From NCBI RefSeq assembly GCF_008386585.1, contig NZ_VUOB01000005.1, positions 40,232-104,231 on the forward strand: a DNA stretch of 64,000 nt. The letters are read 5' to 3'. Position 1 is the stretch's first letter. Each line of letters begins with the position of its first letter. The translations under genes were made by a program, and so were the position numbers. The stretch comes from Solihabitans fulvus. GTDB lineage: Bacteria; Actinomycetota; Actinomycetes; Mycobacteriales; Pseudonocardiaceae. The notes beneath the pieces are model-generated. The model was not told where the DNA came from. It saw only the letters and a list, made by a program, of their open reading frames with translations, and did not search any database. This document shows, piece by piece, positions 2,233 to 23,640 of the stretch.

Positions 2233-4749
2233 CTACCGCTCCGCCATCCCGGCCACGAGCGAACCCCGCGCGGCGCGGCGGGCCGGGATCAGGGCGGCGA
2301 GCGGCGCGGCCAGCACCGCAGCCCCCAGCAGCACGCCGAGCCGGCCCAACGGCAGCGTGAACAGCACGGGTTGGGCACCGGTCGAGGCCACCCGCGCGAG
2401 CAGCCAGGCCGAGCCGACGCCGAGCAGCAACCCGCAGGCCGCGCCGAACAGCGCCACGAACACCGACTCCACCGCGATGGCGCCGCCGAGCCCGCCCCTG
2501 GTCAGCCCGAGCGCGCGCAGCAGGGCCGACTCGCGGGTCCGCTCAAGCACCGACAGCGACAGCGTGTTGGCGATGCCGGCGAACGCGATCAGCACGGCAA
2601 GCGCGGCCAGCGCCCACATCAGGTTCAGCGTGCCGCGCAGCGGCGCCGACATCCGGTCCTTGAGGTCGGCGACGCTGTTGAGCGTGGCGAGCGGCGCGGC
2701 GGCCAGCGCCCGTTCCAGCGCGGGCCGGACCTGGTTCGGGTCGGCGCCCTCGGCGAGCCGAACCAGGATGCTGCCGTCGTAGCTGAATCCGGTGGGGTCC
2801 AGCGCCGGCAGCTGGCCGAGGTCGACCACGGCGAGCCGGAGGTCGACGCCGGGGGCCTGGACGCTGTCGTAGACCGCGACGGCCCGCAGCGGGACCGGGT
2901 TGCCCCGGGGGCCCGCCTGCACGGTGTCGCCGACGGCGACCCCCGTCTGCCTGGCGAGTTCCTGGCTCACGGCCAGTTCCCCTGGACCGAGCCGGTCGAG
3001 GTGGCCGGACAACACCACGGGCCGCAGCAGGCCGCCGAACGCGTCGCCGCGCACGGCGGTCATGCCCCAGCCCCCGAGCGCGCCGAGGTCCCCCGAGAAC
3101 GACACCCTCGGCGCGGCGGCCGCGACGCCGGGGACGGCGGCGAGGGTGGCCGGGAGGGTCGGCGGCAGCGGCTGGCTGTCGAGCAGCGAGGTGACGGTGA
3201 ACTGGGCCGCCAGCTGCTGGTCGAGACTGCGGCTCTGGCCTGCCTCGACGCCGGCCGCCATCGTGGTCACCAGCGACACGACGGCCAGCCCGATGGTGAG
3301 CGCGGCGGCGCTGGCCGCGGTGCGCTTCGGGTTCCGGCCGGCGTTGAGCGCGGCCAGCCTCGCGGACCGGCCGAGCATCGGGGCGCAGATCGCGCCGAGC
3401 GCCCGCATGACCGAGCCCACCAGCAGCGGCCCCGTGGCAAGCACCGCGCCGAGCAGCGCGACCATCGCCGCGACGGAGAGCGCGGCCCCCGCCTGCGCCT
3501 CGACGCGCAGCGCGAACACGGCCGCGCCGACACCCACCGCGAGCAGCGCGAGCCCGGCGATCGTCCTCGGCCGCCCGGCGCGGGCCGACCTGCCCTCCAG
3601 CGGCGTCCGCAGCGCGTCGACCGGGGCGACCCTGGTCGCCGCCCTGGCCGGCAGCGCCGCGGCCAGGGCCGTCACCAGCACCCCGATCGCCAAGGAAGCG
3701 ACGACCGTCCGCGCGGTGACGGGGAGGTACACCGTCGCGTGATGCCCGCCGAGCGCGCCGACGATCGACTGGAGGGCGGCGGCGACGCCGCGCCCGCCGC
3801 ACAGCCCGACCACGGACGCGACCGCGCCGACCGCGGCGGCTTCGGCGAGCACGGACGCGAACACCTGGCGTTTCCCCGCCCCGACGCAGCGCAGCAGCGC
3901 CAGCTCCCTGGCCCGCTGCGCGACGAGGATCGTGAACGAGTTGATGATCACCATCGCGGCCACGATCATCGCGAGCACGGCGAACGCGGTGAAGAAGCCG
4001 GTCAGGCCGCTGGAGTCGGGAGCCGTGTTGTCGAGGAGCCGCGCGGCGGCCTCCTGCCCGGTCACCACCTCGACGCCCCGGCCGCCGACGGCCCCGGTGA
4101 GGTCGGCGACGAGCCTCGGTCGGCCGACACCCGGTGTCGCGCGCACCACGATCTCGTCGAACCCCTGCCCCCTGGCCAGTTGGCGCAGGGCCTCGGGCAG
4201 CAGCACCAGCGCGGCCGCGCCGATGCCGGCGTCGGTCGGCCGGGTGACGGTGCCGACCAGCGTGAAGGTGTGCTGCCGGCCGTCCTGGTCGAGGACGGTC
4301 ACGAGTTGGCCAAGCGCGTGGCCCTCGGCGGTGTCCCGCTCGATCGCGATCTCGCCGGCAGTGCCGGGAAGTCGACCGTCGGCGAGGTCGAAGGGGCGCA
4401 GCCCCTGATCGGCCGGCAACGTGGTCGCGCTGGTTTCCCTCGGGCGGCCCGAGGCGTCACGCAGCAGCGCGCCGACGGTGCTGCGGCCCTCGGCCGCGGC
4501 GACGCCGTGCACCCCGCGGACCGTGGCCAGCAGTTCGTCGTCGAGCGCGGCCCCGCCCCGGCGGGTCTGGCTGATCGACGCATCCACCCCTCGGGTCTGG
4601 ACGGCGACGGCGTCGCGGAGTCCGGCGTGGACGGCGTCGGACAGCACGAGCGACCCGGCGACGAAGGCGACGCCGAGCGCGACGGCGACGGCCGAGAGCA
4701 GCAGGCGCAGGGGGCGGGCCCGCAGCCCGGCCAGGACGGTTCGCAGCAT
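2233..4749 (-). CDS. ABC transporter permease, FtsX/MacB-like with duplicated permease domains (838 aa)
   Basis: Real start is MLRTVLAGLRARPLRLLL at ATG 4749, overlapping the ATPase stop (GTGATG). The track ORF 2233..5112 is an upstream extension. Two FtsX-type 4-TM blocks with a large extracytoplasmic region. Confidence 0.85.
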   Translation of the reverse strand: MLRTVLAGLRARPLRLLLSAVAVALGVAFVAGSLVLSDAVHAGLRDAVAVQTRGVDASISQTRRGGAALDDELLATVRGVHGVAAAEGRSTVGALLRDASGRPRETSATTLPADQGLRPFDLADGRLPGTAGEIAIERDTAEGHALGQLVTVLDQDGRQHTFTLVGTVTRPTDAGIGAAALVLLPEALRQLARGQGFDEIVVRATPGVGRPRLVADLTGAVGGRGVEVVTGQEAAARLLDNTAPDSSGLTGFFTAFAVLAMIVAAMVIINSFTILVAQRARELALLRCVGAGKRQVFASVLAEAAAVGAVASVVGLCGGRGVAAALQSIVGALGGHHATVYLPVTARTVVASLAIGVLVTALAAALPARAATRVAPVDALRTPLEGRSARAGRPRTIAGLALLAVGVGAAVFALRVEAQAGAALSVAAMVALLGAVLATGPLLVGSVMRALGAICAPMLGRSARLAALNAGRNPKRTAASAAALTIGLAVVSLVTTMAAGVEAGQSRSLDQQLAAQFTVTSLLDSQPLPPTLPATLAAVPGVAAAAPRVSFSGDLGALGGWGMTAVRGDAFGGLLRPVVLSGHLDRLGPGELAVSQELARQTGVAVGDTVQAGPRGNPVPLRAVAVYDSVQAPGVDLRLAVVDLGQLPALDPTGFSYDGSILVRLAEGADPNQVRPALERALAAAPLATLNSVADLKDRMSAPLRGTLNLMWALAALAVLIAFAGIANTLSLSVLERTRESALLRALGLTRGGLGGAIAVESVFVALFGAACGLLLGVGSAWLLARVASTGAQPVLFTLPLGRLGVLLGAAVLAAPLAALIPARRAARGSLVAGMAER

Positions 4750-5495
4750 CACACCCCCAGGTTCGTCAGCGCCGCGAGCACGGTGTCGGCGGTGGGGCGG
4801 GTGAGGTGGGCGGCGACGCGGCCGTCGGCCAGCAACACGCCGTGGTCGGTGTAGGACGCGGCGACGGGGTCGTGGGTCACCATCACAACGGTCTGGTCGA
4901 GTTCGCGGACCGAGGTGCGCAGGAAGTCGAGCACCTCGGCGCCGGCGCGCGAGTCGAGGTTGCCGGTCGGCTCGTCGGCGAACACGACCTGCGGCCGGCC
5001 GACGAGTGCCCTGGCGCACGCCACCCGCTGCTGCTGGCCGCCCGAGAGCTCGCCCGGCGTGTGCCGCAGCCGGGTGCGCAGGCCGAGCGCGTCGACGACC
5101 GTGTCGAACCACGCCAGGTCGGGTCGGCGGCCGGCGAGCCGCAGGCCGAGCAGGATGTTGTCCTGCGCGGTCATGGTCGGCAACAGGTTGAACGACTGGA
5201 ACACGAACCCGACCCGGTCCCGCCGCAGCCTGGTCAGCGCCGCGTCGGACAGGCCGGTGAGGTCGGTCTGTCCGATCAGGACTTTCCCATCGTCCACAGT
5301 GTCCAGACCGGCCAGACAGTGCATGAGCGTGGACTTGCCAGAGCCGGACGGGCCCATGATCGCGGTGAAGCGGCGGGCGGCGAAGTCGACGGACACGTGG
5401 TCGAGCGCCCGCACCGCCGTGTCACCGTTTCCGTAGGTCTTCACGACGTCCGCCACGCCGGCCGCCGCCGGACCGTCCACTGTGTTCCCGAGCAT
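4749..5495 (-). CDS. ABC transporter ATP-binding protein (MacB/LolD-type ATPase)
   Basis: Walker A GPSGSGKST, signature LSGGQQQRVACARAL, Walker B VVFADEPTGNLD, H-loop VTHD. Confidence 0.9.
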   Translation of the reverse strand: MLGNTVDGPAAAGVADVVKTYGNGDTAVRALDHVSVDFAARRFTAIMGPSGSGKSTLMHCLAGLDTVDDGKVLIGQTDLTGLSDAALTRLRRDRVGFVFQSFNLLPTMTAQDNILLGLRLAGRRPDLAWFDTVVDALGLRTRLRHTPGELSGGQQQRVACARALVGRPQVVFADEPTGNLDSRAGAEVLDFLRTSVRELDQTVVMVTHDPVAASYTDHGVLLADGRVAAHLTRPTADTVLAALTNLGV

Positions 5496-5635: not shown

Positions 5636-6310
5636 ATGCGGGTGCTGGTGGTCGAGGACGAGAGGCGGTTGGCCGAGACGCTCCAATGGGGGCTGGAGGC
5701 CGACGGCTACGCCGTGGACCTCGCGCACGACGGCGTGGACGGGCTTGAACTCGCGCAGTCGCATCCCTACCAGGTGATCGTGCTGGACATCATGCTGCCA
5801 AGGCTCAACGGCTACCGCGTCTGCGCGGCGCTGCGGGAACGCGGGGTGACGACGCCGATCCTCATGCTCACCGCCAAGAACGGCGAGTACGACGAGGCCG
5901 AGGCGCTGGACACCGGCGCGGACGACTTCCTGAGCAAACCGTTCTCCTACGTGGTGCTCACGGCGCGGCTGCGCGCCCTCGTCCGCCGGGGCCGGACCGG
6001 CTCGGCCGCGCCGCTCGCCTTCGGCGACCTGGTGCTCGACCCGGCGCGGCGAACGTGCCGGCGCGCCGGTCAGCCGGTCACGCTGACCAGCAAGGAGTTC
6101 GCGGTGCTCGAGTGCCTGCTGCGGCAGCAGGGGCAGGTCGTCGCCAAGCGCGAGATCCTCGAGCAGGTGTGGGACCTGGCCTATCGGGGCGACCCGAACA
6201 TCGTCGAGGTCTACGTGAGCGCGTTGCGGCGGAAGCTGGACGCGCCGTTCGGCCGCCGCACCATCGCGACCGTGCGGGGCGTCGGCTACCGGCTGGTCGC
6301 GGATGAGTAG
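5636..6310 (+). CDS. OmpR/PhoB-family response regulator
   Basis: Receiver domain (VLVVEDE, D in VIVLDIMLP, LMLTAK) plus winged-helix output (LTSKEFAVLECLL, VRGVGYRL). Confidence 0.9.
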   Translation: MRVLVVEDERRLAETLQWGLEADGYAVDLAHDGVDGLELAQSHPYQVIVLDIMLPRLNGYRVCAALRERGVTTPILMLTAKNGEYDEAEALDTGADDFLSKPFSYVVLTARLRALVRRGRTGSAAPLAFGDLVLDPARRTCRRAGQPVTLTSKEFAVLECLLRQQGQVVAKREILEQVWDLAYRGDPNIVEVYVSALRRKLDAPFGRRTIATVRGVGYRLVADE

Positions 6311-7790
6311 CTGGTGGCCGGTGTCGGTCCGGCGGAGCACCGCGCTGTCGGCCGCGCTGCTCTGCGCGGTGGTGTTCACGCTGGGGTGGCTGGGGACGCG
6401 CCTGTTCGTGAGCGGGCAGCTGACCGACAACGCCGTGAACGCGACACGCACCGAGCTGGACCAGTTGACCGCGGCCTACCGCGCGGCGTCGCTCGGCGGT
6501 GGGCGGGCCGCGCTGGCCGCGGCGGTCCCGAGCGGCGACGCGATGTTCGCGGTCGTCGCGGACTCCGGGCAGGCGGTGTTGAGCAGCGCCAACCTGCGCC
6601 GCCTCGATCCGGCGTGGACTCCGCCACCGCCCGCCCCTGCCGGGGCGCGGCCCGACTGGACCGCCACCACGAGCGTCACGCTGCGGCCCGGCCAGCATCC
6701 GCAGTGGCGCGAGTACCGCGCCTACACCGTGGTGGGCCGCGTGCTCGACGACGTGCCCGCCGCCCTGGTGGAGCCGCTCGGCCGCGAGGGCCCGACCCTG
6801 GACCACGGGCTGGGCGGCGCGACCACGGCGACGCGCTACCGGCTCACGCTGTACCTGTTCGCGCAGCCGTGGAACACGGTGTCCGCGCTGCGCCTGTTCG
6901 ACGCCGCGTTGGCGTTCTTCGTGCCGTTGGCGGTACTGGTCACGGCCCTGGTCGCGTGGTTCGCGGCGGGGCGGGCGCTGCGGCCGGTCGAGGCGATCCG
7001 CCGGGAGCTGGCCGAGGTCAGCGGCAGCCAGCTCGACCGGCGCGTGCCGGTGCCCGACTCCCGCGACGAGATCGCCCGCCTGGCCCGCACCACGAACACG
7101 ACCCTCGACCGGCTGCAACACGCGCACGACCAGCAGGAGCGCTTCGTCGCCGACGCCAGCCACGAGCTGCGCAGCCCGCTCGCGAACCTGCGGGCCGGTC
7201 TCGAGGTCGCGCTCGCGCACCAGGACCGGGCGGACTGGCCCGCCGTCGCCCACCGGTCGCTGCTGGACGTCCAGCGCCTCCAGCGGATCACGGCGGATCT
7301 GCTCCAGCTCGCCGCCGACCCGACCGAGGTTCCCTCGGCGTCGGAGGTCGTCGACCTCGCGGACGTCGTCGAGGAACAGGTGGCCGAACGCTCGCTCGCG
7401 CCGAGCGGCCCGACCGTCAAGTCCATTGTGGACGGACCGGCGCCGGTGGTCGGCGAAGCAGTTCAGCTCGAACGCCTCCTGCGCAACCTGGTGGACAACG
7501 CGGTGCGGCACGGGCACTCCGTGGTCACCGTGCGCCTGACCGCAGCGCAGGACGAGGTCGTCCTCGAGGTGCTCGACGACGGTCCCGGCATCCCCGCCGC
7601 CGACCGCGACCGCGTCTTCGACCGCTTCGCCCGCCTCGACGACGCGCGCGCGAGGGACGCGGGCGGGTCCGGCCTCGGCCTCACCCTCGCCCGCGACATC
7701 GCCACCCGACACGGCGGATCCCTCCGGGTGGCGGACAGCGACTCGGGCGCCAGGCTCGTCGCGCGCCTGCCCCGCGCGCAGTCACGCTGA
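6303..7790 (+). CDS. Sensor histidine kinase (HAMP-HisKA-HATPase_c), partner of the OmpR-family regulator
   Basis: Overlaps the regulator stop by 8 nt. H-box ADASHELRSPL, N-box LLRNLVDNAVRHG, G-boxes DDGPGI and GGSGLGL; two TM segments flank a periplasmic loop. Confidence 0.85.
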   Translation: MSSWWPVSVRRSTALSAALLCAVVFTLGWLGTRLFVSGQLTDNAVNATRTELDQLTAAYRAASLGGGRAALAAAVPSGDAMFAVVADSGQAVLSSANLRRLDPAWTPPPPAPAGARPDWTATTSVTLRPGQHPQWREYRAYTVVGRVLDDVPAALVEPLGREGPTLDHGLGGATTATRYRLTLYLFAQPWNTVSALRLFDAALAFFVPLAVLVTALVAWFAAGRALRPVEAIRRELAEVSGSQLDRRVPVPDSRDEIARLARTTNTTLDRLQHAHDQQERFVADASHELRSPLANLRAGLEVALAHQDRADWPAVAHRSLLDVQRLQRITADLLQLAADPTEVPSASEVVDLADVVEEQVAERSLAPSGPTVKSIVDGPAPVVGEAVQLERLLRNLVDNAVRHGHSVVTVRLTAAQDEVVLEVLDDGPGIPAADRDRVFDRFARLDDARARDAGGSGLGLTLARDIATRHGGSLRVADSDSGARLVARLPRAQSR

Positions 7791-7842: not shown

Positions 7843-8517
7843 TCAGTCGGCGGCGGGGACGACCACGCCGGCGTCGTAGGCCGCGATCACCAGTTGCGCG
7901 CGGTCGCGGGCGTGCAGCTTGGCCAGCAGGTGGCTCACGTGACTCTTGACCGTGCCGGCGCCGAGGTGCAGGTGCGCGGCGATCTCGCCGTTGGACAGCC
8001 CGCGCGCGATCAGGCCGAGCACCTCCAGCTCCCGCTCGGTGACCCCGGCCAGCCGCGCGGCCCTCGGCCGCGCCGCCTCCGGCTGCCGCGTGTACTCCGC
8101 GACCAGGCGCCGCGTCACGGTCGGCGCGAACAGGCCCTCGCCCGCGGCCACCACGTGGATGGCGGCCAACAGGTTGGCCGGCCGGGTGTCCTTGAGCAGG
8201 AACCCGCTGGCTCCGGCGCGCAGCGCCGCGTACACGTAACGGTCCAGGTCGAACATGGTGAGGATCAGGACGCGGGTACCGCTCGTCTCGGGGTCCGCAC
8301 AGATCCGGGCCGTGGCCTCGATGCCGTCCAGCTCCGGCATCCGCACATCCATCAGCACGACGTCGGGGCGTTCCGCGCGCGTCAGCTCGACGGCCTCCGC
8401 GCCGGTCGCCGCCTCGCCGACCACGGTCAGGCCCGGCGCGGTGTCCACCAGGACCCGAAAGCTGCCGCGCAACAGCGCCTGGTCGTCGGCCACGAGCACC
8501 CGGACCGGCTCGGTCAC
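7843..8517 (-). CDS. NarL/LuxR-family response regulator
   Basis: GTG start overlaps the upstream kinase stop (GTGA). Receiver domain (VLVADDQ, VVLMDVRMP) and LuxR HTH (LTERELEVLGLIARGLSNGEIA). Confidence 0.85.
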   Translation of the reverse strand: MTEPVRVLVADDQALLRGSFRVLVDTAPGLTVVGEAATGAEAVELTRAERPDVVLMDVRMPELDGIEATARICADPETSGTRVLILTMFDLDRYVYAALRAGASGFLLKDTRPANLLAAIHVVAAGEGLFAPTVTRRLVAEYTRQPEAARPRAARLAGVTERELEVLGLIARGLSNGEIAAHLHLGAGTVKSHVSHLLAKLHARDRAQLVIAAYDAGVVVPAAD

Positions 8518-9722
8518 CGGTCGTCCCGTTCCTGGTAGGGCAGGCGGGCCGACACGGCGAAGCCGCCCTCCCGCCGCGTGCCGGCGCCGAACTCCCCGCC
8601 GTAGGCCATCGTCCGCTCCCACATGCCGACCAGCCCGTGCCCGGACCGGCCCTGCCCGGCACGCAGGCCGGGACCGTCGTCCGCGACCACCACGCGCACC
8701 TCCCGGCCGTCCGCCTCGACCGTCACGGCGGCCCGCGCGGGCGCGGCGTGCTTCACCACGTTCGTCAGCGCCTCCTGCACGATCCGGTACACCGACACCC
8801 CGACCCCCTCCGGCAGCTCGGTCGTCCCACGCACGTCCAGGTCGACCCGCACCCCGGCCATCGCGGCGCGCTCGGCCAGCGCCGGCAGGCCGGCGAGCCC
8901 CGGCACCGGGTCGAACTCGCCCTCCGGCGGGTCGGCGTCGGCCGGCTCGTCCGGCCGCAGCACGCCGAGGAGGTGGCGCAGCTCGGTGAGCGCGCCCCGG
9001 CTGGTGTCCTCGATGACGCGCAGCGCGTCGTGCGCCTCCTCGGGACGGGACCGCGCCACGTGGTTGGCGACGCCGGCCTTGACCGCGATCAACCCGATGC
9101 TGTGCGTCACCACGTCGTGCAGCTCCCGCGCGATGCGCAGGCGTTCCCCGAGCACGGCCCGGTCGGCGAGCTGGGCGGCGAACCTCGCGACGTAGGCGCG
9201 CCGGTCCCGCACGGCCCGGCCGATCGTCCAGGCTCCGCCGAGCAGGACCGCGCCGCGCAGCGCGAGCGCGAGGCCGTCCGCGTGCCAGGTCGGCGTGCCC
9301 GAGATCAGCGCCAGGGCAGCGAGCGCGCCGATCACCGGTGTCGGCACCCACCAGCGGCGCGGTTCGGCCAACGCGACCGGATACAGCGCGAAGGCCGCCA
9401 TGGCGAACGGATCCCGCAGCACGCCGACCGCCAACGACAGCAGCGACATCGCCGCGACCACCCCGAACACCGGCACCGGCCACATCCGCCGCGCGGCACA
9501 GGGGAGCCCGACCCCGGCCACCAGCAGGCACTGCGCCCACACCGGCATGGCCGCGCCGCGCGCGGCGACGGTGACCGCGACGAGCACCGCCGTGTAGCCC
9601 GCCGCGATCACCGCGTCGACGGCGACCAGCCGGTCCCGACTCATCGGCCGGGCCACCCGGCGGCCGGCGGCCGCGTCGCTGTCACGCACCCACCGACGGT
9701 ATCCGTTGCGATCATCGCGCAC
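8514..9722 (-). CDS. Sensor histidine kinase, HisKA_3 (NarX/DesK/LiaS-like)
   Basis: H-box ARELHDVVTHSIGLIAVKA, HATPase (DDGPGL, GHGLVGMWER), N-terminal TM helices. An alternative ATG at 9644 gives the start MSRDRLVAVDAVIAAGY. Confidence 0.8.
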   Translation of the reverse strand: MRDDRNGYRRWVRDSDAAAGRRVARPMSRDRLVAVDAVIAAGYTAVLVAVTVAARGAAMPVWAQCLLVAGVGLPCAARRMWPVPVFGVVAAMSLLSLAVGVLRDPFAMAAFALYPVALAEPRRWWVPTPVIGALAALALISGTPTWHADGLALALRGAVLLGGAWTIGRAVRDRRAYVARFAAQLADRAVLGERLRIARELHDVVTHSIGLIAVKAGVANHVARSRPEEAHDALRVIEDTSRGALTELRHLLGVLRPDEPADADPPEGEFDPVPGLAGLPALAERAAMAGVRVDLDVRGTTELPEGVGVSVYRIVQEALTNVVKHAAPARAAVTVEADGREVRVVVADDGPGLRAGQGRSGHGLVGMWERTMAYGGEFGAGTRREGGFAVSARLPYQERDDR

Positions 9723-9785: not shown

Positions 9786-10559
9786 ATGCGCGCGAACCCG
9801 TTGCGCGGCAACGTTGTCAGGGTGATCGAAGTACTAGGACTCACCAAACGCTATGGGCGGGTCACCGCCGTCGACGACCTGACCTTCACGGTGCGGCCGG
9901 GGCAGGTGACCGGTTTCCTCGGCCCGAACGGCTCCGGCAAGTCCACCACCATGCGGGTGCTGCTCGGCCTCGCCACCCCGACCGGCGGCGACGCGCTGAT
10001 CAACGGCCGCGACTACCGCACCGTCCGGCGTCCCCTGCACGAGGTCGGCGCGCTGCTCGACGCGAACCACGTGCACGGTGGGCGGCGGGCCGCCACGCAC
10101 CTGGCCTGCCTCGCGCGCGGCAACGGCATCGGGCAGGCGCGGGTGACGGCCGTGCTCGACCAGGTGGGGCTCGCCGATGTCGCCCGCGACCGCGTCGCCG
10201 GTTTCTCCCTTGGCATGCGGCAGCGCCTCGGCATCGCGGCGGCGCTGCTCGGCGATCCCGGGGTGCTGGTGTTCGACGAGCCGGTCAACGGGCTGGATCC
10301 CGAGGGCGTGCGCTGGATCCGCGAGCTGATGCGGTCGCTGGCGGCCGAGGGACGCACGGTGTTGCTGTCCAGTCACCTGATGAGCGAGGTGGCGCTGACC
10401 GCCGACCGGCTCGTGGTCGTCGGCCGGGGCAGGCTGATCGCGGACACCACCGTCACCGAGCTGACCCGGCGCGGCTCCCTGGAGGAGGCGTACCTGTCGC
10501 TTACGGCCGAAAGCGTGGCGCACCGCGCCGTCGCGCCAGCCGAGCGGGGCCGGCGATGA
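9786..10559 (+). CDS. ABC transporter ATP-binding protein (ABC-2/BcrA-like)
   Basis: Walker A GPNGSGKST, signature FSLGMRQRLGIAAAL, Walker B LVFDEPVNGLD. The track merges it with an upstream spurious extension (8637..). Alternative GTG start at about 9822. Confidence 0.8.
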   Translation: MRANPLRGNVVRVIEVLGLTKRYGRVTAVDDLTFTVRPGQVTGFLGPNGSGKSTTMRVLLGLATPTGGDALINGRDYRTVRRPLHEVGALLDANHVHGGRRAATHLACLARGNGIGQARVTAVLDQVGLADVARDRVAGFSLGMRQRLGIAAALLGDPGVLVFDEPVNGLDPEGVRWIRELMRSLAAEGRTVLLSSHLMSEVALTADRLVVVGRGRLIADTTVTELTRRGSLEEAYLSLTAESVAHRAVAPAERGRR

Positions 10560-11386
10560 GCGCGCCGACGGCGGCGGAACGCCCCGGCATCGGGCGGTTG
10601 TCGGCCATGACCGCGATCCTGGCGGGGGAGTGGCTCAAGCTCCGGTCGCTGCGGGCGACCCGCGTGATCCTCGGCGTGGTCGCCGCGGCCGTGCTCGCCG
10701 TCGCGGCGCTGGCCTGGCACGTGGCGAACCTGTGGGACGGCCTGCCGCCCGACCAGCGCGGGCACCTGCGGGTGGCCGAGCTGGATCTGGTGGTGTCGCT
10801 GCCCGTCCAGCTCTGCATGGCCGTGCTCGGCGTCCTCGCGGTCACCTCCGAGTACGGCACCGGCATGATCCGCGCCAGCCTCGTGGCGGTGCCGCAGCGG
10901 CGCGCCCTGCTTGCCGCGAAGGCGGCGGTCGTCGCGGCCGTCGCGCTCGTCGTCGGCCTGGCGGCGCTGTTCGGGACCTTCTTCGCCGGCAAGCTGATCC
11001 TGGGCGACCGTCCCGTCGCCGGCTACGGGGCGCCGCTGTCGGACCGGCTGCCGATGCTGTTCGCCTCGGCGTTGTCGGTGTTGGTGTTCGCCGTGGTTGG
11101 CCTCGGTGTCGCGGCGGTGGCGCGGTCGGCGCTCGGCGTCAGCTCGGTCGTGGTCGCGCTGGTGTACGTGCTGCCGATGATCGCGATCAACCTGCCGAAA
11201 CCGTGGAGCGACAGGGTTTACTCCCTGCTGCTGCCGGCGCTGCCCGGCCAGCTGGCCGAGTCGGGCTACGCCGGCATCCCGTACACGGGGATCCTGCCGC
11301 CGCCGGGGGCGCTCGCCGTGCTGGTGGCCTATCTGGCCCTGCCGTTGGGCGCGGCCATCGTGCTGATCCATCGTCGCGACGTGTGA
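10556..11386 (+). CDS. ABC-2 family transporter permease
   Basis: ATG overlaps the ATPase stop (ATGA). Six predicted TM helices; protein MSAPTAAERPGIGRLSAMTAILAGEWLKLRSLRAT... Confidence 0.8.
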   Translation: MSAPTAAERPGIGRLSAMTAILAGEWLKLRSLRATRVILGVVAAAVLAVAALAWHVANLWDGLPPDQRGHLRVAELDLVVSLPVQLCMAVLGVLAVTSEYGTGMIRASLVAVPQRRALLAAKAAVVAAVALVVGLAALFGTFFAGKLILGDRPVAGYGAPLSDRLPMLFASALSVLVFAVVGLGVAAVARSALGVSSVVVALVYVLPMIAINLPKPWSDRVYSLLLPALPGQLAESGYAGIPYTGILPPPGALAVLVAYLALPLGAAIVLIHRRDV

Positions 11387-16345: not shown

Positions 16346-16657
16346 TTGGGCGTGCCGGGCTGCGGCGTGTCCGGCGCGGGTCAGGTGCTGGTCCGGGTCA
16401 AGGCCGCCGGCGTCAACCCGCTGGAGTCCGCGATCCGCGCAGGCGTCATGACCGAGGCGTACCCGGTGATCTTCCCCTCGGGGCAGGGCCGCGACCTCGC
16501 CGGGATTGTCGAGGTGCTGGCCGAACTCGCCGACCTGATCGACGCGGGACGCCTGGAGATCCCGATCGCGGCGACCTACCCGCTGGCCGAGGTGCAGGCC
16601 GCCTACAAGGAGCTCGAACAGCGCCACACCCGCGGCAAAATCGTCCTGCTGCCGTGA
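16346..16657 (+). pseudogene. Internally deleted remnant of an MDR-family NADPH:quinone oxidoreductase
   Basis: The 103-aa product joins an N-terminal fragment (GQVLVRVKAAGVNPLESAIRAG ... DLAGIVEV) directly to the C-terminal end (GRLEIPIAATYPLAEVQAAYKELEQRHTRGKIVLLP). About 230 aa of the normal roughly 320-aa enzyme is missing. Confidence 0.5.
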
Positions 16658-16670
16658 TCTCCACCGCCGG

Positions 16671-16706
16671 TCCTGTTGGGGCGGATGGTCAACCACCCCA
16701 ACAGGA
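16671..16706. terminator. Strong bidirectional hairpin TCCTGTTGGGG-N14-CCCCAACAGGA
   Basis: 11-bp perfect stem between the convergent QOR remnant (+) and the lanthipeptide precursor (-). Confidence 0.5.
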
Positions 16707-16717
16707 TTCGGCTCGGG

Positions 16718-16858
16718 TCAGCACTCCACGCGACCGCCGAGGCAGCCGACGTCGGTCGGCTGGAAGCTGTCGTGCCCGGTGTCGCAGCACATCGTCGGCT
16801 CCAGCACGCGCTCGTCGCGCTCGGGCAGTTCCTGAAGTTCGAGCACCTGGTCCTCCAT
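16718..16858 (-). CDS. Lanthipeptide precursor peptide (LanA), 46 aa: MEDQVLELQELPERDERVLEPTMCCDTGHDSFQPTDVGCLGGRVEC
   Basis: Not in the ORF track because it is under 60 aa. ATG 16858 with RBS GGGAGGTG 7 nt upstream; starts 14 nt after the stop of the synthetase on the same strand. GC3 is about 91%. Leader carries an LxLQ (VLELQEL) motif; C-terminal region has 4 Cys and 4 Ser/Thr. Confidence 0.65.
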   Translation of the reverse strand: MEDQVLELQELPERDERVLEPTMCCDTGHDSFQPTDVGCLGGRVEC

Positions 16859-16872
16859 AGCGTTTCACCTCC

Positions 16873-19509
16873 CTACGCAGCGAGTGGGAAACGGCGGTCG
16901 ACCAGCCACGCGCGGTCGCCGCCGTGCCGCAGGCGCAGCAGGAAGTCCAACACCCCGGCGAACCCCACCTGGTAGCTCGGGCAGACCTCCCGCAGCGTGT
17001 CGTCGGGCACCAGCAACCGGCCGCGCACCCGCACCGCGCGGGTGAACAGGCAGGTCGCCAGCTCGGCGGCCTGCCGCCGATAACCGTCCTCGCCGGTCGC
17101 CTGCGCCAGGTCGAGCAGCAACTCGGCGTTGCCGGCCACGCCGTGGCAGATCCCCGGGCCGAGCCGCCACCGGTCCAGGTACGCCGCGCGGGCGGCCCGC
17201 CGCGCGTGGTCGAGGAACGTCGCGTCGCCGGTCTCCCGCCACAGCCGCACCAGGAACGTGCCGACCCCCGACGCGCCGTTGCACCAGAAGTCCAGCCCGG
17301 GACGCTCGGCCCGCCCCGGACCCTTGGGCCACCACGCGGCGTCGCCGCGCGTCCGCGCCACCGCGCACAGCGCGTGCCCGCCGCCGACCGCGACCTCGAC
17401 GAGGTCCGGCCGGCCGAGATCACGGCCCGCGGCCAGCAGGAACGCGCCGACCCCCGCGACGCCGTGCGCGAACCCGTAGCTGCCCAGCCCGGCGAGGTCG
17501 TCGCGGAATCCGCCGTCCGCCAACCAGTCCACCCCGGACCGGGCAAGGCGCACCTGCCGCAGCACCGTGTCCGCCGCGGCCGCCGCGCGCGCCGCGAACC
17601 GCTCGTCGCCGGTCGCGTGCCAGAACCGCAGCTGCGTCAGGCCGGCGCCCGCAACCCCGTGGCAGACGTCGAGATTGGGCCACGCCACGGGAATCTCCAG
17701 CGCCGACGCCGCCGCCCAGTCGGCCGTCGCGGAGTCGCCGAGCGCCACCGCCGCGTCGTGCAGCGCCCACACGGCGCCCGACCGCCCGAAGTGCAGGCCC
17801 GGCAACACCCTGCGCTCCTGCGGCAGCCGCCACCGCATCCACCGCACGGCCGACCGCAGCGCGGGCCGCGCTGACTCCAGGCCGTGCCCGACCGCGCGCC
17901 GCAGCAGCGCCACGACGCCGGCCGCGCCGGTCTGCACATTGCACGGGTCGCCGTGCGGCAGCGAGCTCGGCTGGGGCCACAGGTACTCGCCGGACGGGTC
18001 CATGGTGTCGGCCAGGTGCGCCAACCCGTCCCGCACCAACAGGTCGACGTCGACGTCCGGCAGCTCAGGCCCAGCCGACACCGGCGCCACCCGTGGCCCG
18101 CCAGTCCGCAGGAAACGCCTGGTGTGCGCCAGGGTCCACCGGTCCGGCTCGTCGGCGGTCAGGCCGAGCACAAGCGGCAACAGCGCGGCCAGCGCCGCGC
18201 TGCCCGGCGCGGCGGCGTGCGCCAGCGCCGCGAGGCGCTCGCCGATCCACCGGCCCGGCACCGTGTCCGGCACCAGCACGGGGTGAATGCCGGTGGTGGC
18301 GTGCAGGAGGGTCGCGCCGAGGCTGAAGCAGTCGGCCGACGGCTCCGGCGCGTGATCCGCGCCGGAGCGCAGGTACTCCGGGGCCACGAACCCGGCCGTG
18401 CCGACCACGGCGGTCCGCGTGCCGGGGCGCGTGGCGGCCTCGAGGTCGATCAGCAGGGGAGTGCCGTCGGACCGCATGATCACGTTGCTCGGCTTGAGGT
18501 CTCGCAGCACCAGCCCCACCGCGTGCACCCGGTCCAGCACCGAGCTCAGCGCCCCGGCGAGTTGCCAGGCGCTCTCCGGCGACGGCTGCCCGTCATGTTC
18601 GCGGTGCCAGTCCTGGAGGTTCGTGCCGTCGACGAACTCCTCGACCAGGAACAGGTGGCCGCCAGCCGAGAACAGGTCGAGCCGTTGCGGCGTGATCACG
18701 TGCGGCGCCAACAGGTCCAGCATGTCGGCCTCGTGCCGCAGCCAGTCCCGCGCGTCGCGCCCGTCGAGGTCGGCGCCGACGTGCGGGCGGGCCTCCTTGA
18801 TCAGCACGTCGTGGCCGGTGCGTTCGTCCCTGGCGCGGTACACGCCGCCCCGGTTGCTGTGCCGGATCGCCTCGCTCACCACGTAGCGGTCGGCCAGCCG
18901 CACCGGGTCGCCGCGCCGCCGTGTCGGCGTGTCCGTGGCGGGGAACGGGTCGACGGCCCAGGGCGGGGGAGCGAACCAGGGGAGCCGGTCGTCGCGGACC
19001 GAGGCGCCGTCGGGGTCGCGCAGCCGCATCTCGTAGCTGCCCTCGTCGGTCAGCTCCAGCGGCGCGTGGAAGCAGCCGTAGCGGTAGTGCACGAGACTGC
19101 CCCGGTGGTAGCGGCGGTCGGACAGGATCGCCGGCCCCGGCAGCCCGAGAGTGGCCTCGTGCAGGTCCTTGGCGAGCGCGCGCAGCCGGTCGTCGTCGGC
19201 GGGGTAGGCGGTGAGGAACTTCCCCGACCGCGCGCGATCCATCCGCGCCGACACCAGCCTGGCGGTCACCGCCGGCGTGCTGGCGAACTTGAACGCGCAG
19301 TCGTGCCGCAGCAGCACCCTGGCCGCGCGCTCCAGCACGGACGGCGCGGATCCGGGTGTCGCGGACAGGTGCAGCTTCCAGCCCTGCCGGCGCGGCTCGT
19401 GGTCGGGCGGGGTCACCAGGTACCAGGGTTCGCGCAGGTCGACCCGCCAGCCCGCGGCGGCATCCGGCTCGTCCAGGACGCGCTCGACGATGGGCAGGTA
19501 GTTCGGCAT
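16873..19509 (-). CDS. Trifunctional lanthipeptide synthetase (N-terminal lyase, Ser/Thr kinase, C-terminal LanC-like cyclase); LanL (class IV)-like
   Basis: Kinase motifs (GGVYRARD, VLIKEAR, VLRDLKPSNV, IDLEAA, GTAGFVAPE). LanC-like motifs with the Zn ligands conserved (VCHGVAGAG, FWCNGASGVG, ICHGVAGNAELLL). N-terminal lyase-like region (GWKLHLS, GKFLTAYP). Confidence 0.85.
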   Translation of the reverse strand: MPNYLPIVERVLDEPDAAAGWRVDLREPWYLVTPPDHEPRRQGWKLHLSATPGSAPSVLERAARVLLRHDCAFKFASTPAVTARLVSARMDRARSGKFLTAYPADDDRLRALAKDLHEATLGLPGPAILSDRRYHRGSLVHYRYGCFHAPLELTDEGSYEMRLRDPDGASVRDDRLPWFAPPPWAVDPFPATDTPTRRRGDPVRLADRYVVSEAIRHSNRGGVYRARDERTGHDVLIKEARPHVGADLDGRDARDWLRHEADMLDLLAPHVITPQRLDLFSAGGHLFLVEEFVDGTNLQDWHREHDGQPSPESAWQLAGALSSVLDRVHAVGLVLRDLKPSNVIMRSDGTPLLIDLEAATRPGTRTAVVGTAGFVAPEYLRSGADHAPEPSADCFSLGATLLHATTGIHPVLVPDTVPGRWIGERLAALAHAAAPGSAALAALLPLVLGLTADEPDRWTLAHTRRFLRTGGPRVAPVSAGPELPDVDVDLLVRDGLAHLADTMDPSGEYLWPQPSSLPHGDPCNVQTGAAGVVALLRRAVGHGLESARPALRSAVRWMRWRLPQERRVLPGLHFGRSGAVWALHDAAVALGDSATADWAAASALEIPVAWPNLDVCHGVAGAGLTQLRFWHATGDERFAARAAAAADTVLRQVRLARSGVDWLADGGFRDDLAGLGSYGFAHGVAGVGAFLLAAGRDLGRPDLVEVAVGGGHALCAVARTRGDAAWWPKGPGRAERPGLDFWCNGASGVGTFLVRLWRETGDATFLDHARRAARAAYLDRWRLGPGICHGVAGNAELLLDLAQATGEDGYRRQAAELATCLFTRAVRVRGRLLVPDDTLREVCPSYQVGFAGVLDFLLRLRHGGDRAWLVDRRFPLAA

Positions 19510-19648: not shown

Positions 19649-20719
19649 ATGGGGGTCGTGTGGTTGGTGGTGCCAGGTGCCGTGCTCGGCGCCGCGGCCG
19701 TGGGGCTCGGGTCGGTCGGCGTCGTGCGGCACCGGTGGCTGCTGCTGCCGGCGAGCCTGGCCGGCTCCAGCGCGGCGCTGCTGCTGGTGACCAGCTGGCT
19801 GCTGGCCGATCCCGGTGTCGCCAAGGCCGACGCGCTCAAGACCGGCGGCCTTGCCGGCGGCGCGATCCTCGCGCTGTACGCGCTGTGGATCAACGACCGG
19901 CGCAGGAAGACCGAGGAGGCCCGCCAGGAGATCGAGCAGCAGCGGGCGCAACTCGACCGGGACCGGGTCTCCGACGAACGGTTCGCCAAGGCGATCGAGC
20001 TGCTCGGCCACGCCGCCGACCAGGTGCGGGTCGGCGCGTTGCACGCGCTCGCCGGGCTCGCCCGCAGCCGGCCGACCTACACCCAGACCGTGCTCGACGT
20101 GCTGTGCTCCTACCTGCGCAGGCCCTTCCACCACCCCAGCTACAAGACCAGGGCCGACAATCCCCACCGGGCCGCACGCGCGTCGGGCACCCCGCAGGAA
20201 GCGGAGGCGCTCGCCGCGGCCGACCTTGAGCAGGAGGTCCGGCAGACCGCGCAGCGGCTGATCGCCGGGCTGCTGCCCAGCCGCGACGACACCTCGCCGA
20301 CGCTCTACGACCTGGACCTGTCGGCGGCGACCCTGGAGTACCTCGACCTCACCGGACGGCAGCTGGGCGCGCTCACCGCCCGACGGGCGCGGCTGTACGG
20401 CATCACCCGCCTGTCCGGCGTCCGGGTGACGGGGCCGGCGCTGTTCACCGATGCCACCTTCCACGGCCGCACCGAGCTGCGCAACGCCGTCCTCGACGGC
20501 GGCCTGTCGTTGCTCGGCGCGGAGTTCGGCGGGGAGTGGGAGCTTCGCGGCGCGCTGGTGCGGACGTTCGCCGACCTCCGCACCGCCCCGCCCAGCCAGC
20601 AGCTCGGCGCGTTCCTCGTGGAGACCGACACCGACAGGCTCCGGCTCGGCGACCACCAGGGCTGGGCGACCGTGCGGCAGCCCGACCCCGACGAGGACGA
20701 GCCGGAGACACCGAGCTAA
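19649..20719 (+). CDS. Membrane-anchored pentapeptide-repeat protein
   Basis: Two N-terminal TM helices, a charged coiled region (RRKTEEARQEIEQQRAQLDRDR), and C-terminal tandem pentapeptide repeats (LDLSAATLEYLDLTGRQLGALTARRARLYGITRLSGVRVTG...). Confidence 0.7.
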   Translation: MGVVWLVVPGAVLGAAAVGLGSVGVVRHRWLLLPASLAGSSAALLLVTSWLLADPGVAKADALKTGGLAGGAILALYALWINDRRRKTEEARQEIEQQRAQLDRDRVSDERFAKAIELLGHAADQVRVGALHALAGLARSRPTYTQTVLDVLCSYLRRPFHHPSYKTRADNPHRAARASGTPQEAEALAAADLEQEVRQTAQRLIAGLLPSRDDTSPTLYDLDLSAATLEYLDLTGRQLGALTARRARLYGITRLSGVRVTGPALFTDATFHGRTELRNAVLDGGLSLLGAEFGGEWELRGALVRTFADLRTAPPSQQLGAFLVETDTDRLRLGDHQGWATVRQPDPDEDEPETPS

Positions 20720-20737: not shown

Positions 20738-21670
20738 TCAGCGCAGCGCGGACTCCAGGACGGTCAGCGTGCCCGCGTCCGCGTCCAGCTCCGCCGGCAC
20801 CCCCAACGGCACGGTCAGCTGCCCAGCGCAGTGCCCGAATCCCAGGTCCCACACCATCGGCACATCCAACCCGGCCAACAGGTCCAGCAACACCGCGACC
20901 ACCTCCTCGGGCCGTCCGCACGAGGTGAACGACCCGAACGCGATGCCGGCCACCCCGTCGAACCACCCCGCGCGCAGCAGCTGCGTCACGATCCGGTCCA
21001 GCCGGTAGGGATCCTCGGTCACGTCCTCCAACAACACGATCGCGCCGTCCGGCGGCGCCGGCGCGTCCGGCGCACCCAGCGCGGACACCACCAGACTCGC
21101 GTTGCCGCCGACCGTGACACCGCGCGCGAGCCCGGGAACCAGCGTCCTCGCCCCGGCCGCGCCGAGCACCCGCACCGACTCCGGCTCGAACAGCGCGCGC
21201 CGAAAGTGCTGCTGCGCAGGCACATCGTCCACGAACCCCGGCGTGGCGACCATCGGCGCGAACACCGTCGCCACGCCGACCTGCGCGCCGAACCAGTCGT
21301 GCAACGCCGTCACATCGCTCGACCCGGCGAACACCGTGGGCCGCGCCCGCGCCAACGCCGGCCAGTCCACCAGATCAAGGATCCGCAGGCAGCCGTAGCC
21401 ACCCCGCGCGCACAGCACCGCGGCCACCTCGGGATCGCAGTACGCCCGCACCAGATCCCCGGCCCGGTCCGCATCGGCGCCCGCCAAGTACGGCAGCGTC
21501 GGATGCGCGTCGAGCACGTGCGGGGCGACCTCCACCAGCAGCCCCCACGACCGCAGCACCGCCACCCCGGCGGCCAACTGCGCCTCCGGCACCGGCCCGG
21601 CAGGCGCGACCACCACCACGCGGTCGCCCCGCCGCAACCTGGCGGGGCGACGCCGCGACGGCGAACTCAC
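20738..21670 (-). CDS. LD-carboxypeptidase (peptidase S66, LdcA/MccF family)
   Basis: S66 signatures (DRVVVVAPAG, CARGGYGCLRIL, AGSSDVTALH). GTG start overlaps the upstream S9 peptidase stop (GTGA). Confidence 0.8.
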   Translation of the reverse strand: MSSPSRRRPARLRRGDRVVVVAPAGPVPEAQLAAGVAVLRSWGLLVEVAPHVLDAHPTLPYLAGADADRAGDLVRAYCDPEVAAVLCARGGYGCLRILDLVDWPALARARPTVFAGSSDVTALHDWFGAQVGVATVFAPMVATPGFVDDVPAQQHFRRALFEPESVRVLGAAGARTLVPGLARGVTVGGNASLVVSALGAPDAPAPPDGAIVLLEDVTEDPYRLDRIVTQLLRAGWFDGVAGIAFGSFTSCGRPEEVVAVLLDLLAGLDVPMVWDLGFGHCAGQLTVPLGVPAELDADAGTLTVLESALR

Positions 21671-23640
21671 TCGCGCAGCTCCAGCACGGGAACCCCCGGC
21701 GCCTCGAAGCCCAACACCTGACCGTAGAAGGACAACTCGGCTTCCAGCGCGGCCTTGATCGTCTCCGCCCTGCGGAACCCGTGCTGCTCACCCTCGAACG
21801 TCAGGTACGCGTGCTTGACCCCAGAACCGTCCAGGGCCGCCACGAACCGGTCGGCCTGGTCGGGCGGGCAGATCTCGTCCTCGAGGCCCTGCAACAACAA
21901 CACCGGCCCGACCAACTTGTCGACCTTGCTGCTCGGCGACCGCTCCTTGTACCGGTCGGCCGCCGCAGGCCACGGCCCGACGAGGCCCTCCACGTACCGC
22001 GACTCGAAGTCGTGCGTCTCGCCGCCGTCACCGGTCCAGCCGGCCAGGTCCAGGATTGGGTACATCACGTTGCCGCACCGGTAGGTCGACACCGACGTCA
22101 TCGACGCCGCGGCGGTCCAACCGCCCGCGCTGCCGCCCCGGATCGCCAGCCGCTGGCCGTCCGCGACGCCCTCGGCCGCGAGCGCCTCGGCCACCGCGGC
22201 GCAGTCCCGGACGTCGACGACGCCCCACTGCTCGCGAAGCCGCTCCCGGAACTCCCTGCCGTAGCCGGTGGAGCCGCCGTAGTTCACCGACACCACACCG
22301 ATGCCCCTGCTGGTGAAGAACGCCAGCTCCACATCGAGCACCGGCACCGACCGACCGGTCGGGCCGCCGTGCACGTGCACCACGTACGGCGGCAGTTCGC
22401 CATCGGGCCCAGCGAAGTCGGGACTGGTCGGGGGGTAGACATAGGCGGGCACCGTCTGCCCGTCGGGGCCGGTGAACACCCGCTCCGTGGGCACCGGCAG
22501 GTAGCTGGCGTCGGGCAGCTCGTCCGGCTGCCCCGTGACGGCCGTCAGCTCGCCGTTGGACAGGTCCAGCCGCACCACTGCGGCCTCCGAGGTCGCCCCG
22601 GCCGCGCCGTTGACGACCACGCCGTCGGCCGCGACCAGATTGCCGAACCACACCGGCAGGTCGGTGTCCACGTCGGTCACCGTGCCGCTGCGCTCGTCCA
22701 GCACGGCCAGCCTCGTGTCGGCGACCACTGCGAACCGGCCGTCGCCAAGCGCGGCGAACCACCGGTTACCCAGCCGCCACATCGGGCCGCCGATCTCCCG
22801 CTCGCACGGCGCGAGGTTGCGCACCGAACCGTCCAGGCCGACGCGGTGCAGGTTCCACCAGCCGTCCGGGTCGGTCAACGCCAACAGGGTCTCGGCGGTC
22901 TCCCACTCGAACTGGCAGACCGCCTCGGTCGGACCGCCAGCCAGCACCCGGTGCTCGCCGAGCGACCCGTCCTCGGCCACGGCCGCGACACACAGCTCGG
23001 TGCCGTCCCACGGCATCGCCGGGTGGTCCCAGCCCAGCCAGGCGACGTGCCGGCCGTCGGGGCTGGCCTTCGGTCCGGTCATGAAGTGGTGGCTCGCGCC
23101 GAGCACCCGCACCTCGGCCTCGTCGGTGGCCGCCGCACCCGACACCGGCAGCGCGACCAGGTCGCGGCGGATGTCCGTGCGGGCCTCGCCCGTCGCGGCC
23201 TCGCGCACGCACCACACCTCGGTGCCGTCCGGGCTCGCGGTCAGGTCCGCGTAGCGGAATCCCTGCCGGCGCAGCGGGTCCGGACTGATCGGCTGCGGTG
23301 TCGCCGCCGCGTCGTCCGCGTCGACCAGGTACACGCGCTGGTCGTCCCAGTTGGTGAACGCCAACCGGTCACCGTCGGGAGTGCCGATCACCACCCACGG
23401 CCGGCCGCCGTACTCGTGCACGCGGTTGCGGACGTTCCACGGCGCGGACAGCACCTGCTCGGGCTGCCCGTCGGGCCCCTCCCGCAGCAGGGCGGTGCGG
23501 CCGCCCTCGGCGGGACGGCTCTCCGCCCACCACACCCGTCCGTCGTGCAGGTCGACCCACTGGAGGCCGCCGCCGGCGGCAGCCGCCTCGGCCGAGCCGA
23601 TGGGGGAGGTCCAGGTTCCATAAGGCGCGATCTTCACCAC
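21667..23640 (-). CDS. S9-family serine peptidase (prolyl oligopeptidase / acylaminoacyl-peptidase type)
   Basis: 657-aa product: N-terminal beta-propeller-like region plus C-terminal alpha/beta-hydrolase with nucleophile motif IRGGSAGGW and a downstream Asp/His pair. Confidence 0.85.
   Translation of the reverse strand: MVKIAPYGTWTSPIGSAEAAAAGGGLQWVDLHDGRVWWAESRPAEGGRTALLREGPDGQPEQVLSAPWNVRNRVHEYGGRPWVVIGTPDGDRLAFTNWDDQRVYLVDADDAAATPQPISPDPLRRQGFRYADLTASPDGTEVWCVREAATGEARTDIRRDLVALPVSGAAATDEAEVRVLGASHHFMTGPKASPDGRHVAWLGWDHPAMPWDGTELCVAAVAEDGSLGEHRVLAGGPTEAVCQFEWETAETLLALTDPDGWWNLHRVGLDGSVRNLAPCEREIGGPMWRLGNRWFAALGDGRFAVVADTRLAVLDERSGTVTDVDTDLPVWFGNLVAADGVVVNGAAGATSEAAVVRLDLSNGELTAVTGQPDELPDASYLPVPTERVFTGPDGQTVPAYVYPPTSPDFAGPDGELPPYVVHVHGGPTGRSVPVLDVELAFFTSRGIGVVSVNYGGSTGYGREFRERLREQWGVVDVRDCAAVAEALAAEGVADGQRLAIRGGSAGGWTAAASMTSVSTYRCGNVMYPILDLAGWTGDGGETHDFESRYVEGLVGPWPAAADRYKERSPSSKVDKLVGPVLLLQGLEDEICPPDQADRFVAALDGSGVKHAYLTFEGEQHGFRRAETIKAALEAELSFYGQVLGFEAPGVPVLELRE

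Follow-up and report, generated by a model that had tools for sequence, protein, structure and literature searches.

The lanL–lanA locus and its synthetase

A 64-kb stretch of Solihabitans fulvus DNA (the window; G+C content, 74%) raised the question of whether two adjacent genes, an 878-amino-acid (aa) open reading frame (ORF; here lanL) and a 46-aa ORF (here lanA), make up a lanthipeptide system and, if so, of which class. The locus was read as a two-gene class IV lanthipeptide operon, lanL–lanA, with a probability of roughly 0.85. Direct support was obtained for the two genes, the domains, the complete set of catalytic residues, the fold, and the conservation of the precursor alongside lanL; we infer the chemistry, how the rings are arranged, where the leader is cleaved, expression, and the biological role. 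Both ORFs were located where the initial annotation had placed them (Table 1), with exactly 14 nucleotides (nt; 16859–16872) between the TAG of lanL and the ATG of lanA. By exact sequence match, the enzyme was WP_149847985.1/KAA2265700.1, which carries the NCBI name "class IV lanthionine synthetase LanL" (Solihabitans fulvus), and the peptide was WP_188316370.1. The precursor had initially been called unlisted; this did not hold for RefSeq, in which the exact peptide is present, but it did hold in that the entry is named "hypothetical protein" and has no GenBank accession recorded.

LanL displayed the Pfam domain order RamC_N–Pkinase–LANC_like; the OspF-like lyase, Ser/Thr kinase, and LanC-like regions first proposed for it were thus all matched when hidden Markov models were run, and the strings VLRDLKPSNV, IDLEAA, and GTAGFVAPE were all found in its translation. 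Against the NCBIfam LanL equivalog model NF038150, LanL scored 991 bits (cut-off, 650) and matched model positions 1–851 of 851. The window enzyme was aligned with 24 homologues at 44–63% identity, and three groups of residues were invariant in all 25 LanLs: (i) lyase residues W44, K45, H47, K74, K97, Y102, D131, and R143, equal at a constant offset of 6 to VenL W50, K51, H53, K80, K103, Y108, D137, and R149, the VenL lyase catalytic residues being known by mutagenesis (PMC8341899); (ii) kinase residues K238 (VLIKEAR), D337 and N342 (LRDLKPSN), and D355 (IDLE); and (iii) cyclase residues D614, H682 (FAHG), C743 (WCNG), and C788-H789 (CHG), with spacings of 68, 61, and 45 versus 68, 59, and 45 in SgbL, in which D642 and H710 are the acid pair and C769, C814, and H815 the zinc ligands (PMC9292228). 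All residues that mutagenesis has tied to function in VenL or SgbL were invariant. The Cys-Cys-His zinc ligands of the cyclase domain are the feature dividing class IV from class III, and zinc binding by the LanL cyclase domain is predicted from the conserved ligands.

The AlphaFold2 (AF2) model of LanL, built on the 25-LanL alignment, had a mean predicted local distance difference test (pLDDT) score of 88.9, and the closest solved folds were those of the class IV synthetase CuvL (PDB 8CAV/8CAR; template modeling [TM] score, 0.81–0.83; 28% identity). CuvL was also the top PDB sequence match, with 233 bits over residues 12–869. The 878-aa protein is accordingly named a class IV lanthipeptide synthetase (LanL), its catalytic function being predicted from model score, residues, and fold; the class III/IV assignment made at first sight was borne out and narrowed to class IV by the equivalog score, the zinc ligands, and the CuvL-like fold.

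The LanA precursor and its family in relatives

LanA (MEDQVLELQELPERDERVLEPTMCCDTGHDSFQPTDVGCLGGRVEC) contained four Cys, three Thr, and one Ser, all in its last 25 residues. Its Shine-Dalgarno sequence GGGAGG was situated 9 nt 5' of the ATG, the lanL stop codon contributing its final base as the first base of this sequence, and its G+C content at third codon positions (GC3) was 0.91, as in real genes of the window. The leader displayed the VxxLxxL helix motif (V5/L8/L11), the E7-L8-Q9 site, and the invariant residues Pro12 and Pro21. The roles of the leader motifs were taken from PMC8341899, PMC9828337, PMC11330476, and PMC10885120; a hydrophobic-x-x-hydrophobic-x-x-hydrophobic helix motif has been defined for class III/IV leaders (PMC9828337, PMC11330476).

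When the 46-aa peptide was used as a protein query, nothing but its own entry came back, because genes this short are usually missed by gene callers, and the precursor family was therefore recovered from genomic sequence flanking LanL homologues (a genome scan supplied five loci and exact look-ups another eight). The near clade of the window enzyme was composed of about 57 full-length LanL protein clusters at 56–63% identity to it, from Streptomyces, Embleya, Kitasatospora, Nocardia, and Kutzneria; below this clade lay an identity gap, every other LanL having at most 50% identity to the window LanL. A homologous ORF of 42–46 aa was present directly 3' of lanL in 14/14 near-clade loci (13 relatives plus the window), and the precursor peptides of the loci from five other genera displayed 44–64% identity. 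Conservation of the downstream ORF in related loci had been suggested at the outset as a check on the locus; the ORF was kept together with lanL, and the check therefore does not refute it.

The family shared the pattern M-E-x-x-V-L-E-L-Q-x-L-P-E-x-D/E-...-P-x-M-C-C-D/R-T/S-x-x-x-S-...-D, with V5, L6, L8, Q9, L11, P12, P21, C24, C25, and D36 of LanA being invariant. In pairwise codon comparisons, the leader had 358 third-position changes versus 169 at position 1 and 151 at position 2, and the C-terminal core changed freely at all codon positions; a conserved leader joined to a variable core is the usual signature of a ribosomal-peptide precursor. A purine-rich Shine-Dalgarno sequence preceded the precursor ORF in 9/9 loci compared. 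On this sequence evidence, the 46-aa ORF is taken to be a real precursor gene.

After the invariant Pro, the Cys count equaled the Ser/Thr count in 11/14 cores (4 and 4 in the window core), which fits peptides with every thiol in a thioether. The cores of two Nocardia loci and one Kitasatospora locus (L007, L011, and L013) contained only the two adjacent Cys, so that any ring there has its Cys N-terminal to the dehydro residue, and the minimal conserved unit is therefore C-C-x-T/S-x-x-x-S.

Among the 13 relatives with enough flanking DNA, eight harbored bare lanL–lanA pairs in quite different neighborhoods, while five had a stand-alone zinc-type LanC gene directly 3' of lanA. The stand-alone gene was found in L002, L003, L005, the S. 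olivoreticuli locus L006 (8903–10123), and L008 (8811–9797), the products being 328–406 aa as called; it was absent from L004, L007, L009, and L011–L014, and no copy was present in the 64-kb window. The copies checked (L003, L005, and L008) kept the AHG, WCxG, and CHG motifs, and a P450 or flavin adenine dinucleotide (FAD) monooxygenase gene adjoined the stand-alone LanC gene in L006 and L008. No description of a LanL plus separate LanC arrangement was found in the literature read.

Predicted modification pathway

LanA would be translated from its own Shine-Dalgarno sequence just 3' of lanL, and the amphipathic helix V5-x-x-L8-x-x-L11 would dock on the LanL kinase domain at its N-lobe leader-recognition region, a role taken from PMC9828337. 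The kinase domain is predicted to phosphorylate core residues T27, S31, T35, and possibly T22; the OspF-like lyase domain would eliminate phosphate to give dehydrobutyrine and dehydroalanine, and the zinc LanC domain would add the thiols of C24, C25, C39, and C46, yielding up to four (methyl)lanthionine rings. From the conserved C-C-x-T/S-x-x-x-S unit, a compact N-terminal bicycle is predicted, in which every Cys precedes its dehydro partner: C24/C25 would pair with T27/S31, T35 would then pair with C39, and C46 might pair with T22. The calculated monoisotopic mass of LanA is 5178.28 Da before modification and 5106.24 Da after four dehydrations; a core released behind Pro21 would weigh 2557.99 Da with four dehydrations or 2576.00 Da with three. 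A Cys placed before the dehydro residue is a polarity known in cinnamycin too. Venezuelin has the rings Cys34-Dhb39 and Cys45-Dha49, again with the Cys before the dehydro residue (PMC2843593).

The leader is probably cleaved off by proteases whose genes lie outside the locus; an AplP-type M1 enzyme, cutting behind E-L-Q before further trimming, is a likely candidate. AplP-type M1 proteases cut class III/IV leaders at E-(I/L)-(L/Q), with aminopeptidase trimming thereafter (PMC10885120), and E7-L8-Q9 of the leader matches this site; no AplP-type M1 protease gene was present in the 64-kb window.

Table 1. Features of the lanL–lanA locus, with positions in the window
Feature	Position	Strand	Evidence
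lanL, class IV lanthipeptide synthetase (predicted function)	16873..19509	-	ORF; NF038150 991 bits; AF2 model vs CuvL
Lyase domain RamC_N (residues 15–198)	18916..19467	-	Pfam 202.8 bits; invariant catalytic residues
Ser/Thr kinase domain (residues 219–411), N-lobe = expected leader-binding region	18277..18855	-	Pfam Pkinase 72 bits
Zinc-type LanC cyclase domain (residues 523–868)	16906..17943	-	Pfam LANC_like 106.5 bits
Shine-Dalgarno sequence GGGAGG of lanA	16868..16873	-	Read from sequence
lanA precursor peptide, 46 aa	16718..16858	-	ORF, GC3, downstream homologues in relatives
LanA leader, residues 1–21	16796..16858	-	Alignment; boundary after Pro21 inferred
LanA predicted core, residues 22–46, TMCCDTGHDSFQPTDVGCLGGRVEC, 4 Cys + 4 Ser/Thr	16721..16795	-	Family comparison
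14-bp stem-loop 3' of lanA stop codon	16671..16706	-	RNA fold

Alternative explanations

Six points weigh against the reading as a two-gene class IV operon: (i) lanL–lanA is known here from sequence and predicted structure, its expression and product being predicted; (ii) no exporter or protease gene is contiguous with the pair, so that secretion and maturation would depend on genes elsewhere; (iii) T22, which the fourth ring needs, is not conserved in the family; (iv) the equivalence with VenL and SgbL residues was drawn from constant spacing and invariance, not from direct alignment; (v) ven, the founding cluster of the class, was silent in the organism that carries it (PMC2843593); and (vi) the extra LanC gene of five relatives is missing here and a truncated gene stands in its place, so that the locus could be a reduced version.

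Points (ii), (v), and (vi) bear on the alternative that the locus is a silent or decaying relic, in which a lanL–lanA–lanC' ancestor would have lost its cyclase gene in the deletion that truncated an oxidoreductase gene, leaving no mature product; the silence of the ven cluster was seen in culture (PMC2843593). At the position where the five relatives carry the stand-alone LanC gene, the window harbored a hairpin and a gene remnant. The remnant (16346–16657, plus strand), which the initial annotation had reported beside the locus, was indeed found and was the in-frame, 103-aa remainder of a zinc-type quinone oxidoreductase, convergent with lanA and composed of the N- and C-terminal ends only, about 50 N-terminal residues (ADH_N) being fused to about 50 C-terminal residues (ADH_zinc_N_2); judging from its sequence, it marks a past deletion where relatives hold the extra LanC gene. 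The RNA fold of 16650–16725 (76 nt) had an energy of -42.3 kcal/mol (z = -4.2 versus shuffles), and the 14-bp stem-loop within it is probably a factor-independent terminator common to lanA and the convergent remnant; a consensus promoter and terminator scan found nothing, the stem-loop being missed because it has no U-tract. Against decay, both ORFs were full length with native codon usage and kept all catalytic and invariant residues, LanL had a complete cyclase domain of its own, and eight other relatives were likewise bare two-gene loci in unrelated neighborhoods, the extra cyclase therefore not being required for persistence of the family. A relic is thus considered unlikely.

A class III (LanKC) system, making labionin or lanthionine without zinc, is very unlikely. 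The leader VLELQ is much like the ILELQ recognition motif of labyrinthopeptin (class III LabKC/LabA2), with which the homologous lyase and kinase domains are also shared, and the class III LanKC model NF038151 still gave LanL 471 bits. This score arises because the lyase and kinase domains are common to both classes, and it fell under the cut-off of 575, while the LanL score was far above its own; the hydrophobic leader motif is likewise common to class III and class IV leaders (PMC9828337, PMC11330476). LabKC lacks the zinc ligands, and labionin is formed from S-x-x-S-x-x-x-C, whereas LanL of the window had C743, C788, and H789 and its LanA core had no such motif; in class III ThurKC, the positions of the class IV Cys-Cys-His are occupied by Ser, Phe, and Asp (PMC10604976). 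The best fold match was class IV CuvL, and class III ThurKC, SalKC, and PneKC matched the LanL model less well (TM score, 0.58–0.72).

That the 46-aa ORF arose by chance and the LanL substrate is encoded elsewhere is extremely improbable: spurious ORFs are plentiful in GC-rich genomes and the protein search found the peptide alone, but the empty search is explained by gene calling, and the homologues in the same position in every locus, the bias of substitutions to third codon positions, and the Shine-Dalgarno sequence in each locus compared all argue for a gene.

Comparison with known class IV systems

The sequence comparison was applied to lanL–lanA together with VenL/VenA of Streptomyces venezuelae, the system of venezuelin, with which class IV was founded. 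The two systems shared (i) the same lyase–kinase–zinc-cyclase enzyme with the catalytic residues at offset 6, (ii) lanA directly 3' of lanL in a cluster without protease or regulator gene, (iii) a core of four Cys and four Ser/Thr, with an N-terminal Cys cluster before the dehydro partners, and (iv) a weakly similar leader pattern ME..LE...LPE(T/R)D (BLASTP E = 0.045; hhalign E = 0.002, probability 14%). They differed in that venT and venH, which encode an ABC transporter, belong to the ven cluster while the S. fulvus locus has no such genes attached, and in their cores, T-C-E-C...T...T.C...SC in VenA versus T-M-C-C-D-T...S...T...C......C in LanA. A core of the VenA type gives four overlapping rings. 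Homology between the two cores was rejected, only the leaders being aligned by BLASTP and hhalign. The VenA sequence used here was checked against the residue numbers in PMC2843593.

CuvL/CuvA (curvocidin, Thermomonospora curvata) is the one class IV system whose synthetase structure has been solved: the three domains close into a ring, and a helical leader is bound via the hydrophobic motif (PMC11330476). CuvL was the best match of the window LanL in both sequence and fold and differed from it in its low identity. In the phmmer alignment, CuvL (8CAR chain A) had Cys-Cys (QCCG) at C788-H789, where the 24 homologues had Cys-His (CHG); CuvL was described in a later paper as Cys-Cys-His, and the mismatch may represent a one-residue alignment shift.

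SflL/SflA of Streptomyces sp. NRRL S-1022, a class IV system whose peptide has two non-overlapping methyllanthionine rings, shared the two-gene logic, and its leader is removed by unclustered AplP-type M1 proteases. By description, SflA is cut at PDLLK, and two Thr give rise to its pair of rings, while the LanA family has ELQ, no PDLLK, and a conserved Thr-plus-Ser pair beside the Cys-Cys doublet.

A further class IV type, at 45% identity, was represented by L010 (S. griseochromogenes) and the second LanL of L009, whose precursors have leaders with an L-Q hydrophobic motif. Clusters of this type contained lanL, an S9 prolyl oligopeptidase gene, three precursor genes, and an ABC transporter gene, the peptidase being like FlaP of class III flavipeptin. 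In L010 (4001–10742) and L009 (12621–14790), the S9 gene shared one base with the lanL stop codon and was followed by three ORFs with LDxNALQxL leaders. L009 belongs to Kitasatospora sp. GP30, in which this locus was located about 4 kb from a locus of the C-C-D-T type, placing two class IV systems together.

The enzyme is already recognized by the NCBI pipeline and by standard tools, and the understanding of the class is unchanged. By 2020, 815 class IV clusters had been catalogued, 86% of class IV precursors being unannotated and 83% being the sole precursor of their cluster (PMC7268733), and class III/IV clusters usually lack a protease gene (PMC8341899). The description of the locus as minimal and easy to miss was therefore right as to a bare two-gene locus but not as to any peculiarity, a minimal and unlisted character being routine for the class on these figures.

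What is modestly new here is the apparently uncharacterized precursor family, whose members combine a VLELQxLPE leader and an invariant Pro with a core starting with C-C-x-T/S-x-x-x-S; this core matches neither the venezuelin-type core nor the SflA-type core, the latter as described. A full-text search found no paper with the family motifs, sequences printed only in figures not being searchable. Few types of class IV lanthipeptide have been characterized, namely the venezuelin/streptocollin/globisporin group, SflA, and curvocidin. It is tentatively proposed, at slightly less than even odds, that the window LanL and the roughly 57 clusters of its clade form an uncharacterized class IV family with (i) a C-C-x-T/S-x-x-x-S N-terminal bicycle, followed by an invariant Asp and having its Cys N-terminal to their partners, (ii) a topology unlike that of venezuelin, SflA, or curvocidin, and (iii) a second, stand-alone zinc LanC at about 40% of the loci, an arrangement that would be unreported. 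The precursor family was kept across at least six actinomycete genera. Having two genes and being easy to clone, the S. fulvus locus represents a minimal system from a genus that has received little study; it could serve to test how LanL handles Cys N-terminal to their partners and, through its relatives, whether the extra LanC changes the product; the remaining interest lies in the C-C-D-T precursor family and in the optional second cyclase of relatives.

Genomic surroundings

The genes flanking lanL–lanA were ordinary and unrelated to it, as had initially been stated and as was seen from Pfam searches of the flanking ORFs: (i) 3' of lanA, the convergent oxidoreductase stump was accompanied by genes for an Asp/Glu racemase, a GNAT acetyltransferase, NmrA-type reductases, and a MarR regulator, and (ii) 5' of lanL, there were a divergent pentapeptide-repeat membrane protein gene, an LD-carboxypeptidase gene, and an S9 peptidase gene. 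These neighbors had no homologue in the related loci, save a weak match (28% identity) of the S9 catalytic domain to that of the L009 S9 peptidase. The domain search of the neighbors also agreed with the early remark that no dedicated transporter, protease, or immunity gene is attached; none was contiguous with lanL–lanA in the window, the closest ABC-2 exporter being about 5.3 kb away and the S9 peptidase gene about 2.2 kb upstream of lanL.

The pentapeptide-repeat protein (19649–20719, plus strand; 356 aa) was encoded 139 nt from lanL, the two genes being divergent. Visual inspection suggested hydrophobic, possibly membrane-spanning N-terminal segments, Pfam assigned the pentapeptide repeats to its C-terminal part, and it matched no NCBIfam model. 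It was considered as an immunity protein and rejected, having no homologue in any related locus.

The S9-family peptidase gene (21667–23640, minus strand; 657 aa) had a 4-nt overlap with the LD-carboxypeptidase gene, the pair spanning 20738–23640. The invariant Pro that the precursors carry three positions ahead of Cys-Cys makes a Pro-specific protease an attractive idea; the S9 peptidase was nevertheless rejected as a dedicated leader protease. Its gene overlaps that of the LD-carboxypeptidase, related loci do not preserve its linkage, and it is no orthologue of the S9 peptidases encoded beside LanL in L009 and L010, to which it displayed 29% identity in the catalytic domain only.

Two transporter-plus-sensor modules were located 5–12 kb from lanA, and nothing ties them to the locus. 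Such modules often sense or export peptide antibiotics. They were composed of (i) a HisKA_3 histidine kinase gene (8514–9722, minus strand) beside an ABC-2 exporter with ATPase (about 9800–10559) and permease (about 10619–11386) genes on the plus strand and (ii) about 11.6 kb away, a MacB/FtsX permease gene (2233–5112, minus strand) and an ABC ATPase gene (4749–5495, minus strand), adjoining an OmpR-type regulator and kinase pair (5636–7790, plus strand).

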